Shown one piece after another: positions 1,511 through 38,955 of a DNA stretch of 38,955 nucleotides. Origin of the DNA: Candidatus Nomurabacteria bacterium RIFCSPLOWO2_12_FULL_44_11. GTDB lineage: Bacteria > Patescibacteriota > Minisyncoccia > Phycocordibacterales > UBA9973. The notes below the pieces were generated by a model that worked only from the letters and a program-made list of their open reading frames with translations, did no database searches and was not told the DNA's origin. How positions within the stretch are numbered: position 1 is the first letter of the stretch; the number at the start of each line of letters is the position of its first letter. Location of the stretch: the NCBI GenBank assembly GCA_001787125.1, contig MFVU01000032.1, positions 1 to 38,955 on the forward strand, written 5' to 3'. The position numbers were made by a program, and so were the translations under genes.

Positions 1511-2272
1511 TTATTCCTCCAAAAGCTCAAAATCTTCACCTTCTTTTGCGATAACTTTTTTACTACGGATTAAATAGACAGTTCTAATTCCAATGCCCAA
1601 TAGAAAAATTAAGGTGGTTACAAGAATATAGAAAGATATTGAATTATCAGCATTATTTGAGGTGGTTACATTTACTGTAGGCAAAGTATCAATGCCGGAT
1701 GGCAACATTGCTTGCTTGGGTTGGATTGAAGCAGGTTTCGTGGTTTTTGGGGTTAAAAGAGAGGCAGAAGTATACGAAATCTGGTTTTCCGCCCCTGGAG
1801 TAGGTTTTGCCCCGACCCAGACATTATTTATTCTTTGGAGTGAATTCCCGTCTCCAGCCCCACTCGTGCTTCCTTTATAGGCATATTGGTCAATGATCTT
1901 GTCCCCGTCCTTGAGAGCAAGCACTTCGCCGGCGTTATTTAAGGAAAAAGTCGAATCAAAGATGGTTCCGAAAAAATTCGGCCAATCGGCCGCAAATTTC
2001 GAGGGATTGGAAACTATAATAGCGTAACCAGCTGGTTCTATCTTTGTGCTGCCTTCTACCAGCGTAAGCTTATGATTGGTATCACCCTCAAATAACTTAA
2101 GAATGGAAAGGTCCACCTCGCTGTCAGAATTATTAAATACCTCAATCCATTCCCTACCCTCATCGCTCCCCGTCTTGAGATCATACATTATCTCATTTAT
2201 TTCTAAGGAAGCCAGCGTAAAATAAATCGGAAAAAAGGAAATTACTATTAGCAGAATAATTTTCTTCGCCAT
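1511..2272 (-). CDS. lamin tail domain (LTD) protein with signal peptide and C-terminal membrane anchor
   Basis: N-terminal hydrophobic leader. LTD-like core LEINEIMYDLKTGSDEGREWIEVFNNSDSEVDL..LNNAGEVLAL. C-terminal TM segment FYILVTTLIFLLGIGI. Confidence 0.8.
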   Translation of the reverse strand: MAKKIILLIVISFFPIYFTLASLEINEIMYDLKTGSDEGREWIEVFNNSDSEVDLSILKLFEGDTNHKLTLVEGSTKIEPAGYAIIVSNPSKFAADWPNFFGTIFDSTFSLNNAGEVLALKDGDKIIDQYAYKGSTSGAGDGNSLQRINNVWVGAKPTPGAENQISYTSASLLTPKTTKPASIQPKQAMLPSGIDTLPTVNVTTSNNADNSISFYILVTTLIFLLGIGIRTVYLIRSKKVIAKEGEDFELLEE

Positions 2273-2286
2273 GCTATAATATTAAC

Positions 2287-2358
2287 ACGTGTCCCGTTAG
2301 AAATTCAACGAACGGGGATGAAAGATAAATATTATTATTATTTTAAATTTTTAATGGG
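2287..2358 (+). promoter_or_regulatory. structured 72-nt 5' leader, diverged member of the leader family (PfkB kinase gene)
   Basis: Starts 6 nt after TGcTATAAT (2272..2280) and ends at ..AATGGG|ATGG. Shares ACGTGTCCCGT, ACGGGG, GATAAAtATTATTA and TGGG-ATGG blocks, at the same or within 1 nt of the same positions, with the 72-nt elements at 13948..14019 and 27416..27487. Local hairpin CCCGTT/AACGGG (2293-2298/2311-2316); long-range helix 2293-2303/2348-2358. Confidence 0.6.
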
Positions 2359-3351
2359 ATGGAAAAAATAGATTTTTTGTCGATTGGGGATATCGTGGTA
2401 GACAATTTTATACGAATTAGCGATGCGCATATTCACTGCCGGATGGACACTGATGCTTGTGAGTTATGCCTACGCTTCGGTGATAAAATACCTTATGAAT
2501 CATCCACAGTGGTGCCCGCAGTTGGCAATTGTGGCAATGCATCTGTTTCAGCTGCCCGCCTAGGACTTCGTTCTGCTCTAATTTCACATTTGGGTGAAGA
2601 CGATAATGGCGCAGCGTGTCTGATAGCACTCGAGAGAGACAAAGTGATTACAAAATACATCGAGAAAGAAAAGGGCAAGCCCACCAACTACCACTACGTG
2701 CTTTGGTACGATATTGACCGAACTATTTTAGTTAAACACACCGCCTTCACTTATAAATTCCCGGAGCTTCCAAAAGTTTCTTGGATGTATCTAACCTCGC
2801 TTGCCGATCACTCCCTACCCTACCACGAAAAAATAGCTAATTTTTTGAAGAAAAATCCAGAAACAAAATTGGCCTTCCAGCCGGGAACTTTCCAGATAAA
2901 ATTAGGGAAGGAAAAATTAAAAGATATTTATGCCCGCACCGAAATATTTTTTTGCAATTTGGAGGAGGCAGAAAAAATTCTCGGCATCCAAGACAAAGAC
3001 GTTTTGACCCTAGCCAGGGGTATCGCCGCTCTGGGACCTAAAATGGTAGCGATCAGTGATGGTCCCAAGGGGGCTTATTTTTACTATAATAATGAGCTTT
3101 GGCAGATCCCGATTTACCCAGATATTGCTCCTCCTCTGGAACGTACCGGGGCTGGCGATGCCTTTTCTTCCACCTTCACTGCCGCCCTGGCGCTGGGCAA
3201 GTCCCCTCTCGAGGCCTTCGCCTGGGGACCAATAAATTCAATGTCCGTCTGCCAAGAAATCGGCGCGCAGAAAGGTCTCCTCCCTCGATCTAAACTGGAA
3301 GAATACTTGACCAAAGCCCCTGCGGATTATAAGGCTAAAAAAATAAATTAA
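2359..3351 (+). CDS. PfkB-family carbohydrate kinase (ribokinase-like)
   Basis: 330 aa. C-terminal PfkB signature TGAGDAFSSTFTAAL. N-terminal glycine-rich sugar-binding region VPAVGNCGNASV. Confidence 0.85.
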   Translation: MEKIDFLSIGDIVVDNFIRISDAHIHCRMDTDACELCLRFGDKIPYESSTVVPAVGNCGNASVSAARLGLRSALISHLGEDDNGAACLIALERDKVITKYIEKEKGKPTNYHYVLWYDIDRTILVKHTAFTYKFPELPKVSWMYLTSLADHSLPYHEKIANFLKKNPETKLAFQPGTFQIKLGKEKLKDIYARTEIFFCNLEEAEKILGIQDKDVLTLARGIAALGPKMVAISDGPKGAYFYYNNELWQIPIYPDIAPPLERTGAGDAFSSTFTAALALGKSPLEAFAWGPINSMSVCQEIGAQKGLLPRSKLEEYLTKAPADYKAKKIN

Positions 3352-13947: not shown

Positions 13948-14019
13948 CCCAGTACTAAAATTTTAATTAATAATCTTTATCGTTATGCCCCGTAATCAAA
14001 AATTTAGTACGGGACAGGT
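13948..14019 (-). promoter_or_regulatory. structured 72-nt 5' leader (copy A) of the TA operon
   Basis: The reverse complement is 69/72 identical to 27416..27487. It abuts the ATG at 13947 and begins 6 nt after TTGACA-16-TATACT (14053..14026, minus strand). Confidence 0.75.
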
Positions 14020-14126
14020 ATTACAAGTATATACTTTGTTATAACATTGTCAATACCCTTAATCATCCTGTCCCCCTGACAAGGGGGACTATAGGGGGTT
14101 AAAGAATTATGCTAATATGAAAACAA

Positions 14127-17894: not shown

Positions 17895-17954
17895 ATTTAT
17901 ATCATAACAAGATATACCACCCTGTCAACATTTTTATGTGCTATATTATACGGG

Positions 17955-18506
17955 ATGGAAATAGAAAAAGAAAAGTCCGGATGGGAGCTGGTACGATTTG
18001 CAATCATTGCTCTCCTGGTAGTAGTACCGATCCGCCTGTTCATCGCTCAGCCGTTTGTCGTTTCTGGCGCCTCAATGTTTCCGACTTTTGAAGACAAGGA
18101 CTATTTGATTGTCGATGAGCTAACTTATAAATTCAACGAGCCGAAAAGGGATGACGTGATAATATTTCGGTATCCGAATGACACCAAAAAGTTTTTTATA
18201 AAGAGAATTATCGGTTTGCCGAATGAAACAGGGGATATCAAGGGTGGCACCATCACCATTACCAATGAATCACACCCGGACGGGCTTACGCTAGAAGAAC
18301 CGTATGTAAAGAACGGATCAGCAGACAATGTACATTTTGAATTGAAAAACGGGGAGTATTACGTAATGGGCGACAATCGAATTGCCAGCTCCGATTCCAG
18401 ATCTTGGGGCACCGTATCGCGAAAACACATTGTTGGCAGGGCTCTGGTCCGTCTCTGGCCAATCAGTGATATAGATTTCTTGCCAGGTAAATATGAGCCA
18501 AACTAA
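17955..18506 (+). CDS. lepB: signal peptidase I
   Basis: TM anchor, catalytic SGASMFPTF, KRIIGLP, GDNRIASSDSR. ATG lies 7 nt after TGcTATATT (17939..17947). Confidence 0.9.
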   Translation: MEIEKEKSGWELVRFAIIALLVVVPIRLFIAQPFVVSGASMFPTFEDKDYLIVDELTYKFNEPKRDDVIIFRYPNDTKKFFIKRIIGLPNETGDIKGGTITITNESHPDGLTLEEPYVKNGSADNVHFELKNGEYYVMGDNRIASSDSRSWGTVSRKHIVGRALVRLWPISDIDFLPGKYEPN

Positions 18507-22580: not shown

Positions 22581-22665
22581 CCCGTTAGAAGCAGGTCGCG
22601 GTCAGACCGTGACTGCTTAAAGTTATTTTGTAATTTTTGCGACCGCGGCTTCTAACGGGATTCAT
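22581..22665 (-). promoter_or_regulatory. structured 85-nt 5' leader of hpf, same family as the 72-nt leaders
   Basis: TGtTATAAT (22680..22672, minus strand) + 6 nt + A(22665). The leader begins AUGAAUCCCGUUAGAAGC. A 14-bp helix AUCCCGUUAGAAGC/GCUUCUAACGGGAU (22661-22648 / 22592-22579) includes the A and U of the start codon. An inner 7-bp helix GACCGCG/CGCGGUC lies at 22647-22641 / 22603-22597. Confidence 0.55.
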
Positions 22666-27372: not shown

Positions 27373-27415
27373 TTATTTTAATTAGATTATATCAAATCTG
27401 TGCTAAAATTGATAG

Positions 27416-27487
27416 ACCTGTCCCGTACTAAATTTTTGATTACGGGGTATAACGATAAACATTATTAGTTAAAATTTTAGTACTGGG
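27416..27487 (+). promoter_or_regulatory. structured 72-nt 5' leader (copy B) of the histidine-phosphatase gene
   Basis: 69/72 identical to the reverse complement of 13948..14019. Begins 6 nt after TGcTAAAAT (27401..27409) and ends at ..TACTGGG|ATG (27488). Confidence 0.75.
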
Positions 27488-34237: not shown

Positions 34238-34729
34238 TTACCTTAGCACATATTTGCGAGCAAGATAAAGTGAACCCAAGAGCATTGCCAAGGCCGAGGT
34301 TAGGATTAGGATCACGTTACGCGATGCATCACCTCCCGCACCGGTGGTAGGAAATCCCAAGGATCCCGTTCCAGAAACAATTACGGGCGTGGCCACTGCC
34401 GTGCCATTACAGGGCTCACCAGTAATCGAACTGTAACCTATAGTAGAAGAACAGCCAGCGAGCCATTGTATAGCCACTGACCCTCCGCTACAAGGACGGC
34501 CGTTGATTGAACTGTATCCTAGGGCACTGGTGCAACCGGGCATGTATCTCGCGGTGGCAACACTGGTGCCGTTACAAGGAAGTCCGGTAGTGGCGCTGTA
34601 GCCCAGCCCGGAGGCACAGCCCGCTGGAAATGTCGCGGTTTGAGCTTCGGCAGTAGAAACCGAAGAAAACGCTACGCCGCTTATTACGAGAGCAAACAAC
34701 AAAACAGAGAGAGCGAGTTTGTTAATCAT
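34238..34729 (-). CDS. secreted triple Cys-pair-repeat protein with FPTTG sorting signal (sortase substrate)
   Basis: Signal peptide. Three ~27-aa repeats GC(A/T/S)S.(L/I)GYS..(T/N)G.PC.G..VA. C-terminal FPTTG + hydrophobic helix + ARKYVLR. Confidence 0.7.
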   Translation of the reverse strand: MINKLALSVLLFALVISGVAFSSVSTAEAQTATFPAGCASGLGYSATTGLPCNGTSVATARYMPGCTSALGYSSINGRPCSGGSVAIQWLAGCSSTIGYSSITGEPCNGTAVATPVIVSGTGSLGFPTTGAGGDASRNVILILTSALAMLLGSLYLARKYVLR

Positions 34730-38564: not shown

Positions 38565-38637
38565 GGGCCCGTAGCTTAGTTGGTAGAGCGCCTCATTTGC
38601 AATGAGGAGGTCACCGGTTCAAATCCGGTCGGGTCCA
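38565..38637 (+). tRNA. tRNA-Ala (UGC)
   Basis: Hand-folded cloverleaf. Acceptor GGGCCCG/CGGGUCC with the G3.U70 Ala identity pair, anticodon loop UUUGCAA, T arm ACCGG-UUCAAAU-CCGGU, 73 nt. CCA is not encoded. Confidence 0.9.
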
Positions 38638-38680
38638 CAAAACTCAAAAATTTCAACTGCTTGAGATTTTTGAGTTTTGT
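38637..38680 (+). terminator. 20-bp A/U-rich hairpin starting at the tRNA-Ala discriminator base
   Basis: ACAAAACTCAAAAAT (38637..38651) pairs perfectly with ATTTTTGAGTTTTGT (38666..38680). The stem extends 5 more pairs to a CTGC loop and ends in UUUUGU. Confidence 0.45.
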
Positions 38681-38797: not shown

Positions 38798-38869
38798 TCC
38801 GGGGTAGCTCAGCGGTAGAGCGGTCGCCTGTTAAGCGATTGGTCGTAGGTTCGATCCCTACCCCCGGAG
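38798..38869 (+). tRNA. tRNA-Asn (GUU)
   Basis: Acceptor UCCGGGG/CCCCGGA, D arm GCUC-AGCGGUA-GAGC, anticodon arm GUCGC-CUGUUAA-GCGAU, T arm GUAGG-UUCGAUC-CCUAC, 72 nt. CCA is not encoded. Confidence 0.9.
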
Positions 38870-38955
38870 CAATGTTTTGTATTTAGGGTCAAAATTAACT
38901 TTTTGTCTTTCAGGCAAAGAGTTTTTAGAGGTTCGAGCAGAAGCAATTTCTTTCT

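Follow-up and report, generated by a model that had tools for sequence, protein, structure and literature searches.

The 72-nt leader of a PfkB-family carbohydrate kinase gene, at positions 2287-2358 (+) of contig MFVU01000032.1 from Candidatus Nomurabacteria bacterium RIFCSPLOWO2_12_FULL_44_11, was analysed together with its relatives in the same 38,955-nt stretch of DNA (hereafter, the window) and in other genomes. On comparative sequence grounds, this leader belongs to a family of RNA-constrained, palindromic and start-codon-specific insertions found in a Nomurabacteria-like subclade of the ultra-small Patescibacteria, in hosts whose mRNAs are mostly leaderless and lack Shine-Dalgarno (SD) sites. 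The alignments place the point of insertion, in sense orientation, between the ATG of the gene and the site at which ribosomes would begin without it, which is the +1 of the promoter in the leaderless case and elsewhere the junction past an upstream stop codon. The best explanation, to which a probability of about 0.5 is assigned, is that the element is a portable start-site cassette, similar to a miniature inverted-repeat transposable element (MITE), that permits or gates translation initiation, rather than a ligand-sensing riboswitch. The element is probably transcribed within the mRNA and constrained as RNA; we infer the 5' ends of the transcripts, their folding in vivo and the route of the ribosome to the AUG from these data.

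The 3' end of the kinase leader abuts the ATG of the PfkB open reading frame (ORF; 2359..3351, +; 330 aa; Pfam PF00294, E = 2.5e-28), and positions 2260-2365 of the window read ...catGCTATAATattaac|ACGTGTCCCGTTAGAAATTCAACGAACGGGGATGAAAGATAAATATTATTATTATTTTAAATTTTTAATGGG|ATGGAA. An initial annotation of the region had described a length of 72 nt, a 6-nt offset from an extended -10 box and an opening shared with two sister leaders, and all three hold: the box TGCTATAAT (2272..2280, +) is followed by the 6-nt spacer ATTAAC and by A2287, the predicted transcription start, at which the opening ACGTGTCCCGT begins. The internal box given as GAUAAAyAUUAUUA is present at 2324-2337 of the kinase leader (GATAAATATTATTA), but its variable base "y" is G in the copy at 14019; likewise, the ending UGGG|AUGG is right for the kinase leader (TGGG|ATGG at 2355-2362), but the copy at 14019 ends in UGGG|AUGA. 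A covariance model built from 52 copies (Model R1), run with filters off, recovered the kinase leader as a class-2 copy of 72 nt (2287..2358, +; 56.1 bits, E = 1.3e-11), and hence the proposed homology of this diverged leader to its two sisters was corroborated. On the opposite strand, the extended -10 box TGTTAATAT (2279..2287, -) of a divergent leaderless gene is followed by 6 nt and an ATG (2272-2270), which opens an ORF of 253 aa with an LTD domain (Pfam). The two promoters stand back to back and overlap at 2270-2290: the kinase -10 box (2272-2280, +) covers the start codon of the LTD gene, and the -10 box of the latter (2287-2279, -) covers the first base of the kinase leader.

A family of elements abutting start codons

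About 75 copies of the element were collected from 41 metagenome-assembled genomes (MAGs) of Nomurabacteria/Paceibacterota and from metagenome contigs. They fall into three sequence classes, and four of them are located in the window. The family is non-coding and dispersed, has no conserved ORF, and ranges in length from about 70 to 125 nt. A scan of one genome per species with an exact pattern fixing TGTCCCGT, ACGGGG and GATAAA, through which most class-1 copies were found, returned 55 loci; 50 of these belong to 41 MAGs labelled Candidatus Nomurabacteria, Paceibacterota or Patescibacteria, and the remaining five are evident chance matches in unrelated phyla. The complete matches from the Candidate Phyla Radiation (CPR) are about 72 nt long, nearly identical, and end exactly at the ATG of the gene, with one exception, a secE copy (locus L029). 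Model R1 added diverged copies before secE, nusG, rpmJ and other genes, and a structural scan added 13 class-3 copies. In the whole family, every complete copy is in sense orientation and abuts a start codon except for a single altered copy (L014).

The register with the ATG is not absolutely fixed, since the start codon of two secE copies (L029:676-753(-) and L046:439-514(-)) sits 5 nt further upstream, inside the 3' arm; the arms of these copies, GUAUGGGAUC and UUAUGGGAUC, respectively, encode MGSKITEY.... The altered copy (L014:2715-2827) is class-1-like and has been absorbed into a coding region. Its GGG|ATG is now GGG ATT, the competitor strand described below is absent, and a 350-aa ORF starts at an ATG within the element (2760), with the 3' arm encoding the ...SKILVLG... 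of a signal-peptide-like N-terminus.

Two of the sister copies in the window are class-1 elements of 72 nt. One of them (13948..14019, -; 104.1 bits with Model R1) precedes an antitoxin/PemK-MazF operon, the second gene of which matches Pfam PemK, and the other (27416..27487, +; 101.3 bits) precedes a histidine phosphatase gene and differs by one base from copies at other genes in other species. The promoter spacing previously proposed for both was recovered: TTGACA (14053), 16 nt, TATACT (14026) and 6 nt lead to A14019, with 11/12 in the promoter scan, and TGCTAAAAT at 27401-27409 plus 6 nt leads to A27416. The third sister is a class-3 copy of 85 nt before hpf (22581..22665, -), scoring only 12.6 bits with Model R1; this weak match aside, the scan of the window with Model R1 gave no further full copy. 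The motif ACSTGTCCCGT occurs three times in the window against 0.42 expected, and TCCCGT-N8-30-ACGGG four times against 0.29 expected, a number reached by none of 100 shuffles. The fourth of the latter sites, at 34364, was considered as a further copy but dismissed as a chance match inside an ORF.

Motif counts indicate that the genome represented by the window uses no SD sites and mostly leaderless mRNAs. SD-like 4-mers precede 2 of 40 window genes, compared with 10.8% at random positions, whereas TGnTAnnnT followed by ATG at 4-9 nt (mostly 6) and an ORF of at least 60 aa was found in 14 cases versus 0.33 in shuffles. Examples from this -10 scan are located at 8800-8785, 11191-11176, 17909-17894, 28608-28593, 33552-33537, 35897-35882 and 38511-38495 on the minus strand, and at 17939-17955 on the plus strand. 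In promoter-proximal copies, A1 of the element takes the place that the A of the ATG occupies in leaderless genes. SD pairing by the GGGAUG of the element was rejected, as this motif adjoins the AUG and SD motifs are depleted genome-wide.

A physiological signal shared by the downstream genes had been envisaged in the initial annotation. This expectation was not borne out: 60 downstream proteins match 64 Pfam families, with no single pathway or ligand. Among them are the ribosomal proteins S2, S9, S12, L17 and L29, SecE, SecY, NusG and sigma-70, as well as HPF, Clp (ClpB), AlaRS, GatA, Ddl, ATP synthase a, and type II secretion system (T2SS) proteins E and F. The genomic context of the copies is also heterogeneous. 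Out of 61 class-1 and class-2 copies, 35 (~57%) are intercistronic, beginning 2-24 nt past the end of a preceding co-directional gene (counted from its stop codon), and only three of these 35 have a TG-extended -10 box at the right spacing. In the other 26 copies (~43%), a TAnnnT box at plausible spacing was detected in 15, nine of which are TG-extended. The possibility that every copy marks a transcription start was thus discarded; with so many copies located behind the stop codon of another gene, the element can be called an intercistronic unit just as well as a 5' leader.

Folding of the transcript

In classes 1 and 2, the element can form a long helix of about 22 bp, in which nt 5-27 pair with a 24-nt stretch whose last two bases are A and U of the start codon. 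Minimum-free-energy folding gave this helix for 58 of 60 copies (-15 to -24 kcal/mol), and positions 5-17 are paired in at least 57 of the 60. At its base, G5.U74 and U6-A73 are kept in 56-58 of the 60 copies, and together with 20 further pairs the helix covers positions -24 to +2. According to the minimum-free-energy fold and the pair tables, the 5' arm of the kinase leader corresponds to nt 5-19 (2291..2305, +) and the 3' arm to nt 60-74 (2346..2360, +), the latter extending across A and U, the first two bases of the PfkB start codon.

The substitutions that had drawn attention to the kinase leader are indeed present: nt 12-14 change from ACU to UAG, UACGGG to AACGGG, and AGUAC(U)GGG to UUAAUGGG. 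As had been claimed, the change from ACU to UAG is compensated in the distal arm, and the same swap was found in ten further class-2 copies from other genomes, in which pair 14 is G14-C, G14.U or A14-U. Across the 60 copies, pair 10 is G-C in 48 and G.U in 12; pair 12 is A-U in 49 and U-A in 10; pair 13 is C-G in 47, A-U in 11, and U-A and U.G in one each; pair 14 is U-A in 49, G-C in six, G.U in two and A-U in three; and pair 17 is A-U in 56, G-C in two and G.U in two. Positions 12, 13, 14 and 17 therefore show changes on both sides with no broken pairs, and position 10 varies between G-C and G.U. With these copies as a larger alignment, the compensatory changes in the long helix exceeded those of shuffles. 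The covariation score was 0.364, compared with 0.151 in shuffled data (0/500 shuffles reached the observed value) and at most 0.125 with slid partners, a score obtained on an arms-only alignment of 15 distinct haplotypes with the bulged base removed, which derives from the predicted duplex and counts the class 1/class 2 split, a single event. The pair tables were made with RNAduplex; MAFFT/RNAalifold and covariance-model alignments misregister the class-2 distal arm. Strand asymmetry provides another line of evidence. The sense strand has 121 G.U pairs and one C/A mismatch, and the antisense strand 36 wobble pairs and 27 A/C mismatches. Since the imperfections of the helix are G.U on the sense strand but A/C on the other, the constraint acts on the sense RNA.

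A second structure, mutually exclusive with the long helix, is a local hairpin between nt 4-12 and nt 26-34 (-7.5 to -13.7 kcal/mol); its 3' strand has the sequence UACGGGGCA, a mimic of UAC(U)GGGAU in the distal strand. In the kinase leader, the 5' strand of this hairpin (nt 6-12; 2292-2298, +) overlaps the 5' arm of the long helix, and its 3' strand, AACGGGG (nt 25-31; 2311..2317, +), rivals the distal arm for nt 6-12. Pair 12:26 is A-U in 48 copies (class 1), U-A in six and U.G in two (class 2), and is unpaired in four, and pair 5:33 is G-C in 37, G.U in three and A-U in one; the core is invariant across copies and only the outer pairs vary. It had been proposed that nt 12 covaries with both of its alternative partners. 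Both the distal-arm and the local-hairpin partners do track the class, but very few independent changes are involved, because the split between classes 1 and 2 is essentially one evolutionary event. Similarly, the proposal of two competing helices is upheld in that a mutually exclusive pair is plausible and the competitor strand is kept, but the invariant core of the local hairpin shows little covariation. The internal CGGG is retained in 7 of 10 class-2 copies (0.22 expected), the interiors of which are otherwise unrelated, and in 6 of 13 class-3 copies (0.77 expected). In the folding models, one conformer pairs the start codon and the alternative uses the same 5' strand, as would be the case in start-site masking. 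Overall, a two-helix picture is plausible and reasonable, the evidence for the local helix being thin.

In the kinase copy alone, the competitor strand reads GGGGAUG and so creates an internal AUG (2318-2320), which opens a 17-codon out-of-frame ORF (2318-2373, +) crossing the PfkB start; a second out-of-frame AUG is located at 2354-2356. These internal AUGs may be decoy starts or incidental.

Other functions of the leader were also considered. No terminator-like site was detected in the three leader regions scanned, and no U-run follows either helix; a transcription attenuator was rejected on this basis. A promoter inside the element was discarded as well, by inspection of the sequence, since the -10-like hexamers of the AU-rich 3' arm are wrongly spaced and not conserved between classes; moreover, the arm shows covariation as RNA. 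The NUG at nt 3-5 of classes 1 and 2 opens frames of 3-16 codons that shift with indels, which argues against a conserved upstream ORF (uORF) in these classes. Finally, GUACUGGGAUG resembles the CsrA consensus obtained by systematic evolution of ligands by exponential enrichment, but class 2 has CUAAUGGGAUG and there is no second GGA site, and a CsrA site was therefore discarded.

Insertion and conservation

PfkB orthologues with 70-79% identity number in the thousands. Of 80 metagenomic PfkB loci, 79 had a readable upstream region, and 56 of them, from other Paceibacteria, are leaderless by the -10 test. A class-2 leader was found in only two of the 79 (L065 and L066), the other 77 being empty, and Model R1 detected no copy beyond these two in 858 kb of PfkB orthologue loci. 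In the closest relatives (L136-L138; 77-79% identical), the empty site keeps the same start of the divergent gene, the same -10 box and the same 6-nt spacer, directly followed by the ATG. L136 (79% identical) reads CATgttatgataatagc|ATG where the window has CATgctataatattaac|[72 nt]|ATG and, likewise, cgcttCATgttatgataatagc|ATG versus ttcgcCATgctataatattaac|[72 nt]|ATG; the pair L061 and L065 provides a second comparison between empty and filled kinase sites. The histidine phosphatase locus is filled in the window and empty in L139-L142, and three of these (L140-L142; 75-78% identical) share the promoter of the window, with TGCTAAAAT, 6 nt and ATG (TGCTAAAATtaacat|ATG versus TGCTAAAATtgatag|[72 nt]|ATG in the window). 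Because the closest orthologues of both genes join the same promoter directly to the ATG, the element behaves as a precise insertion, and the alignments identify the kinase and phosphatase copies as lineage-specific and exact to the base.

The 13 class-3 elements (73-129 nt), all of them abutting ORFs of 91-1043 aa, carry 11-13-bp perfect terminal inverted repeats, CCCGTTAGAAGC/GCTTCTAACGGG, which share sequence with the class-2 arm; the terminal repeats of classes 1 and 2 are imperfect, with a bulge and G.U positions. A 5-nt direct repeat consisting of the start codon plus two bases, and varying with the gene, is present in 11 of the 13, and two copies are partly decayed; the repeat is ATGAA nine times, and ATGAG, ATGTA and ATGCA(A) once each. 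The left ATG stays at the +1 of the promoter and opens a leaderless uORF of 6-28 codons (MNPVR...); in three cases (the window, L058 and L037) it ends 4 nt short of the ATG of the gene. More distant Paceibacteria, in which classes 1 and 2 are lacking, have class 3 as well.

The hpf copy of the window has the layout ATGAA | T-CCCGTTAGAAGC...GCTTCTAACGGG | ATGAA, with 12-bp perfect terminal inverted repeats and the 5-nt direct repeat ATGAA at 22665-22661 and 22580-22576. It is preceded by TGTTATAAT (22680-22672) and 6 nt, and its left ATG, at the predicted +1, opens a uORF of 26 codons (MNPVRSRGRKNYKITLSSHGLTATCF), likewise leaderless, that ends 4 nt short of the hpf ATG. Upstream, a 649-aa gene has its stop codon 2 nt away from this element, and its 3' end contains the hpf -10 box. 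In L058, a near-identical hpf-type copy precedes another gene, whose putative product has an N-terminus like that of leucyl-tRNA synthetase.

Once inserted, the element seems to be preserved. Orthologous class-1 copies are 85-99% identical, compared with 19-48% at four-fold-type sites of the adjoining genes and 54-89% for the proteins; in the case of rpmC, identity reaches 99% for the leader and 54% for the protein. Orthologues of rpsL, secE and hpf carry elements of differing class. With synonymous sites being saturated, these values indicate that orthologous copies are under purifying selection. About 1.3 Mb of sequence yielded no copies at other neutral sites. Taken together, sequence identity, orientation and register, absence from neutral sites and wobble bias point to selection on the transcript, which could, however, amount only to "do not harm the host gene".

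Mechanism, alternatives and related systems

In the mechanism that we propose, the transcript would fold as the ~22-bp long helix, the base of which, UGU-CCCG / (Y)GGG-AUG, would place the old entry point beside the new AUG and at the same time mask that AUG. The internal copy of the distal strand, (A)CGGGG, could then capture the 5' strand in the local hairpin, leaving an AU-rich single strand and a free AUG. The cassette would thereby permit and gate initiation at an SD-less AUG by ribosomes for which the usual routes are a 5'-terminal AUG or re-initiation behind another cistron. Class-3 transcripts would retain the original ATG, one of the two duplicates, at the 5' end, where it may load a ribosome that reads into the helix and opens it. 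Copies would be gained at new genes in a MITE-like manner and, before an essential gene, mutations breaking the element would shut the gene off, so that it would come to be conserved. A bolder version, which we regard as possible but rather doubtful, is that of a start-codon-homing mobile cassette with its own mode of translation, in which either the base of the hairpin hands the 70S ribosome across the stem in a shunt- or bypass-like manner, or the element is excised as an mRNA intervening sequence that restores a 5'-terminal AUG. The ribosome could set out from the 5' end, from the duplicated ATG or from the stop codon upstream. If true, shunt/bypass initiation or excision would represent a previously undescribed solution to SD-less initiation in CPR bacteria.

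Several observations weigh against the start-site cassette. The long helix exceeds the local hairpin in stability by 5-12 kcal/mol, so that the AUG would be masked at equilibrium, and a masked AUG, as predicted by the models, fits badly with essential, highly expressed genes unless the helix is opened or removed. With regard to melting of the helix by translational coupling, a terminating ribosome with a spacer of 2-12 nt would reach only about nt 1-5 of the leader. Conservation of the loop goes beyond the needs of a two-hairpin switch, which hints at a partner, and the conservation of the boxes TGTCCCGT, ACGGGG and GATAAA is partly an ascertainment effect because the search pattern fixed them. 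Classes 1 and 2, including the kinase leader, are without target-site duplication, and their left end, ACYTG, is constant; pairing with the AUG is possible for the UGU of this region. A search of about 1.3 Mb of loci for a transposase or an autonomous partner having the same ends gave none, as the sole long-range pair of ends, in L085, lies within a 614-aa ORF. Viral copies were likewise absent from IMG/VR.

The main rival explanation is nuclease processing to a leaderless mRNA. The element would be a processing ("punctuation") signal, with the long hairpin cut at or near its 3' base by a nuclease specific for double strands or for structure, e.g. RNase III, giving rise to an mRNA that starts at or near the AUG, as suits leaderless-type initiation, while the upstream RNA would keep the hairpin as protection of its 3' end. 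A 3' boundary coinciding with the AUG in every complete copy apart from an altered one, the intercistronic position without promoter of 35 of 61 copies, the leaderless, SD-free host, and a ~22-bp helix of roughly two turns in classes 1 and 2 are all in agreement with this explanation, which would also remove the objection that a stable helix silences essential genes. Moreover, RNase III, RNase J and PNPase have been reported to be retained in CPR (PMC12641178), and for Correia elements either cleavage or protection by RNase III has been described (PMC2649163), both of which count in favour of processing. Nevertheless, the internal competitor strand and the pairing of nt 4-6 with the AUG would be left unexplained, and promoter-proximal copies would be pointless, as the same genes are leaderless in relatives. 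In addition, RNase III normally cuts inside a helix and not at the last base pair. We regard processing as possible, but rather doubtful.

The two-state, riboswitch- or attenuator-like leader proposed in the initial annotation, in which one shared signal (a metabolite, a protein or a small RNA) would switch a regulon, has in its favour that both mutually exclusive helices are conserved, that conservation beyond structural need suggests a trans-acting partner, and that the long helix takes in the A and U of the start codon. This logic was not sustained by the present data and we consider it unlikely: the interior, completely different between classes, has no aptamer-like core, the RNA forms a rod-like hairpin or a small alternative and no multi-helix junction or pocket, and no terminator-like site is present. 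In addition, the 60 downstream genes are spread over 64 Pfam families, most copies are inside operons, the kinase and the phosphatase are without the element in nearly all relatives, and there is no match in Rfam.

A purely selfish repeat, i.e., a functionless MITE tolerated in the few non-coding bases of a compact genome and placed where it is non-lethal, would account for the terminal inverted repeats and 5-nt direct repeats of class 3, for the lineage-specific gains at two window loci, for the patchy distribution (only two matches in 858 kb of related loci), and for near-identical copies across genomes and genes. It is, however, improbable in view of the 85-99% identity of orthologous copies despite saturated synonymous sites, the invariable sense orientation and exact ATG register, the lack of copies at other neutral sites in about 1.3 Mb, and a wobble bias specific to the sense-strand RNA. 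Least probable is a DNA-level site, in which the three CCCGT/ACGGG motifs and the inverted repeat would bind a transposase, repressor or nucleoid protein or form part of a promoter: CCCGT at the left end, inverted internally and at the right end, is a layout typical of transposase sites, and A1 coincides with the predicted promoter +1, but the imperfections of the helix take the form of G.U on the sense strand and of A/C on its complement, the orientation of the copies strictly follows that of the downstream gene, a promoter is lacking at most of them, and by inspection no consistent -10-like box lies inside the element at a useful distance from the ATG. Thus, the ligand-sensing riboswitch, the attenuator, the DNA operator and the functionless repeat each fail one or more tests.

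Among known systems, the closest in kind are transcribed MITE-like repeats such as the Correia elements (CREE/NEMIS) of Neisseria; ERIC and RUP/BOX belong to the same type. They are likewise short, non-coding and dispersed, with terminal inverted repeats and with target duplications, which the present family shows in class 3, and they are gene-adjacent and co-transcribed, form long hairpins that influence the neighbouring gene, and vary in presence between related genomes. In contrast, there is no sequence similarity to them, and the right end of the present element abuts the ATG in all complete copies but the altered one. The target duplication is TA in those repeats and the start codon plus 2 nt in class 3. 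Further differences are the leaderless, SD-free host, the conservation of copies across species-level genomes beyond that of the adjoining proteins, and the absence of an evident promoter or IHF-site function.

In logic, the element would resemble start-masking leaders and the mobile bypass inserts of phage T4 gene 60. As in translational riboswitches, attenuators and RNA thermometers, one strand (nt 4-12) can pair with either a second (nt 26-34) or a third (nt 66-74 plus the AUG), and one of the two states hides the start codon; unlike those leaders, the element has no aptamer, coherent gene set or terminator, is portable and often absent at orthologues, and is intercistronic in more than half of the cases. 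The 50-nt coding gap of gene 60 and the mitochondrial "byps" of Magnusiomyces are also short mobile hairpin inserts that translation must pass, and their matching flanking codons, at which take-off and landing occur, are comparable to the duplicated ATGNN of class 3. The gene 60 cassette has been reported to be encoded by a mobile element (bioRxiv 10.1101/2022.08.31.505936). Bypass inserts, however, are located inside coding sequences and are hopped by an elongating ribosome with peptidyl-tRNA, whereas the present elements are at gene starts; nothing shows that the latter are bypassed, and classes 1 and 2 are without a left ATG. Mitochondrial tRNA punctuation and the RNase III sites of T7 early genes provide a third parallel, as a structured RNA of ~70 nt between cistrons, the removal of which would give start-codon-initial mRNAs in a leaderless-translating system. 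The element differs from them in that it is not tRNA-like and also occurs directly behind promoters, and its cleavage is putative.

What is new in this family is the exact start-codon register, together with a duplication that comprises the start codon and conservation between species. No description of it was found in Rfam or in the searchable literature, the coverage of which is incomplete, including work on CPR leaders, on leaderless translation, on RNA motifs and on the sequence itself. At the gathering threshold, Rfam matched only two tRNAs in the whole window, and the leader gave nothing above noise at E up to 10. These tRNAs, tRNA-Ala(TGC) (38565-38638, +) and tRNA-Asn(GTT) (38798-38870, +), are also the sole ARAGORN matches, by which a tRNA-like unit was rejected, and no known ribozyme family matches the element. 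For CPR bacteria, which are uncultured, have reduced ribosomes and, judging by the window, mostly do without SD sites, this compact and highly conserved module, placed before ribosomal-protein, secretion, transcription and tRNA-synthetase genes, offers a concrete and portable object for the study of initiation on messages that are not leaderless. A mobile element that duplicates the start codon on insertion would be unusual among repeats in its specialisation for a landmark of translation. In practical terms, a family that is absent from Rfam would mislead gene callers, as with the start-site shifts and N-terminal extensions seen here, as well as riboswitch screens.

Some further hairpins were noted in the course of the analysis. 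Two short ones (L013:3439-3486, 48 nt, and L058:915-980, 66 nt) share the terminal motif CCCGTTAGAG...CTCTAACGGG and have TCAAC-like repeats on either side, with no adjoining ATG; whether truncated or unrelated, they may be relatives of the family. In the window, a GC-rich hairpin, GTCCCCC-TTGTCA-GGGGGAC (14062-14081, -), which was not scored as a terminator by the scan, is located between dnaE and the promoter of the toxin-antitoxin operon, and its stem, CTGTCCCC, resembles the opening of the element, CTGTCCCG.

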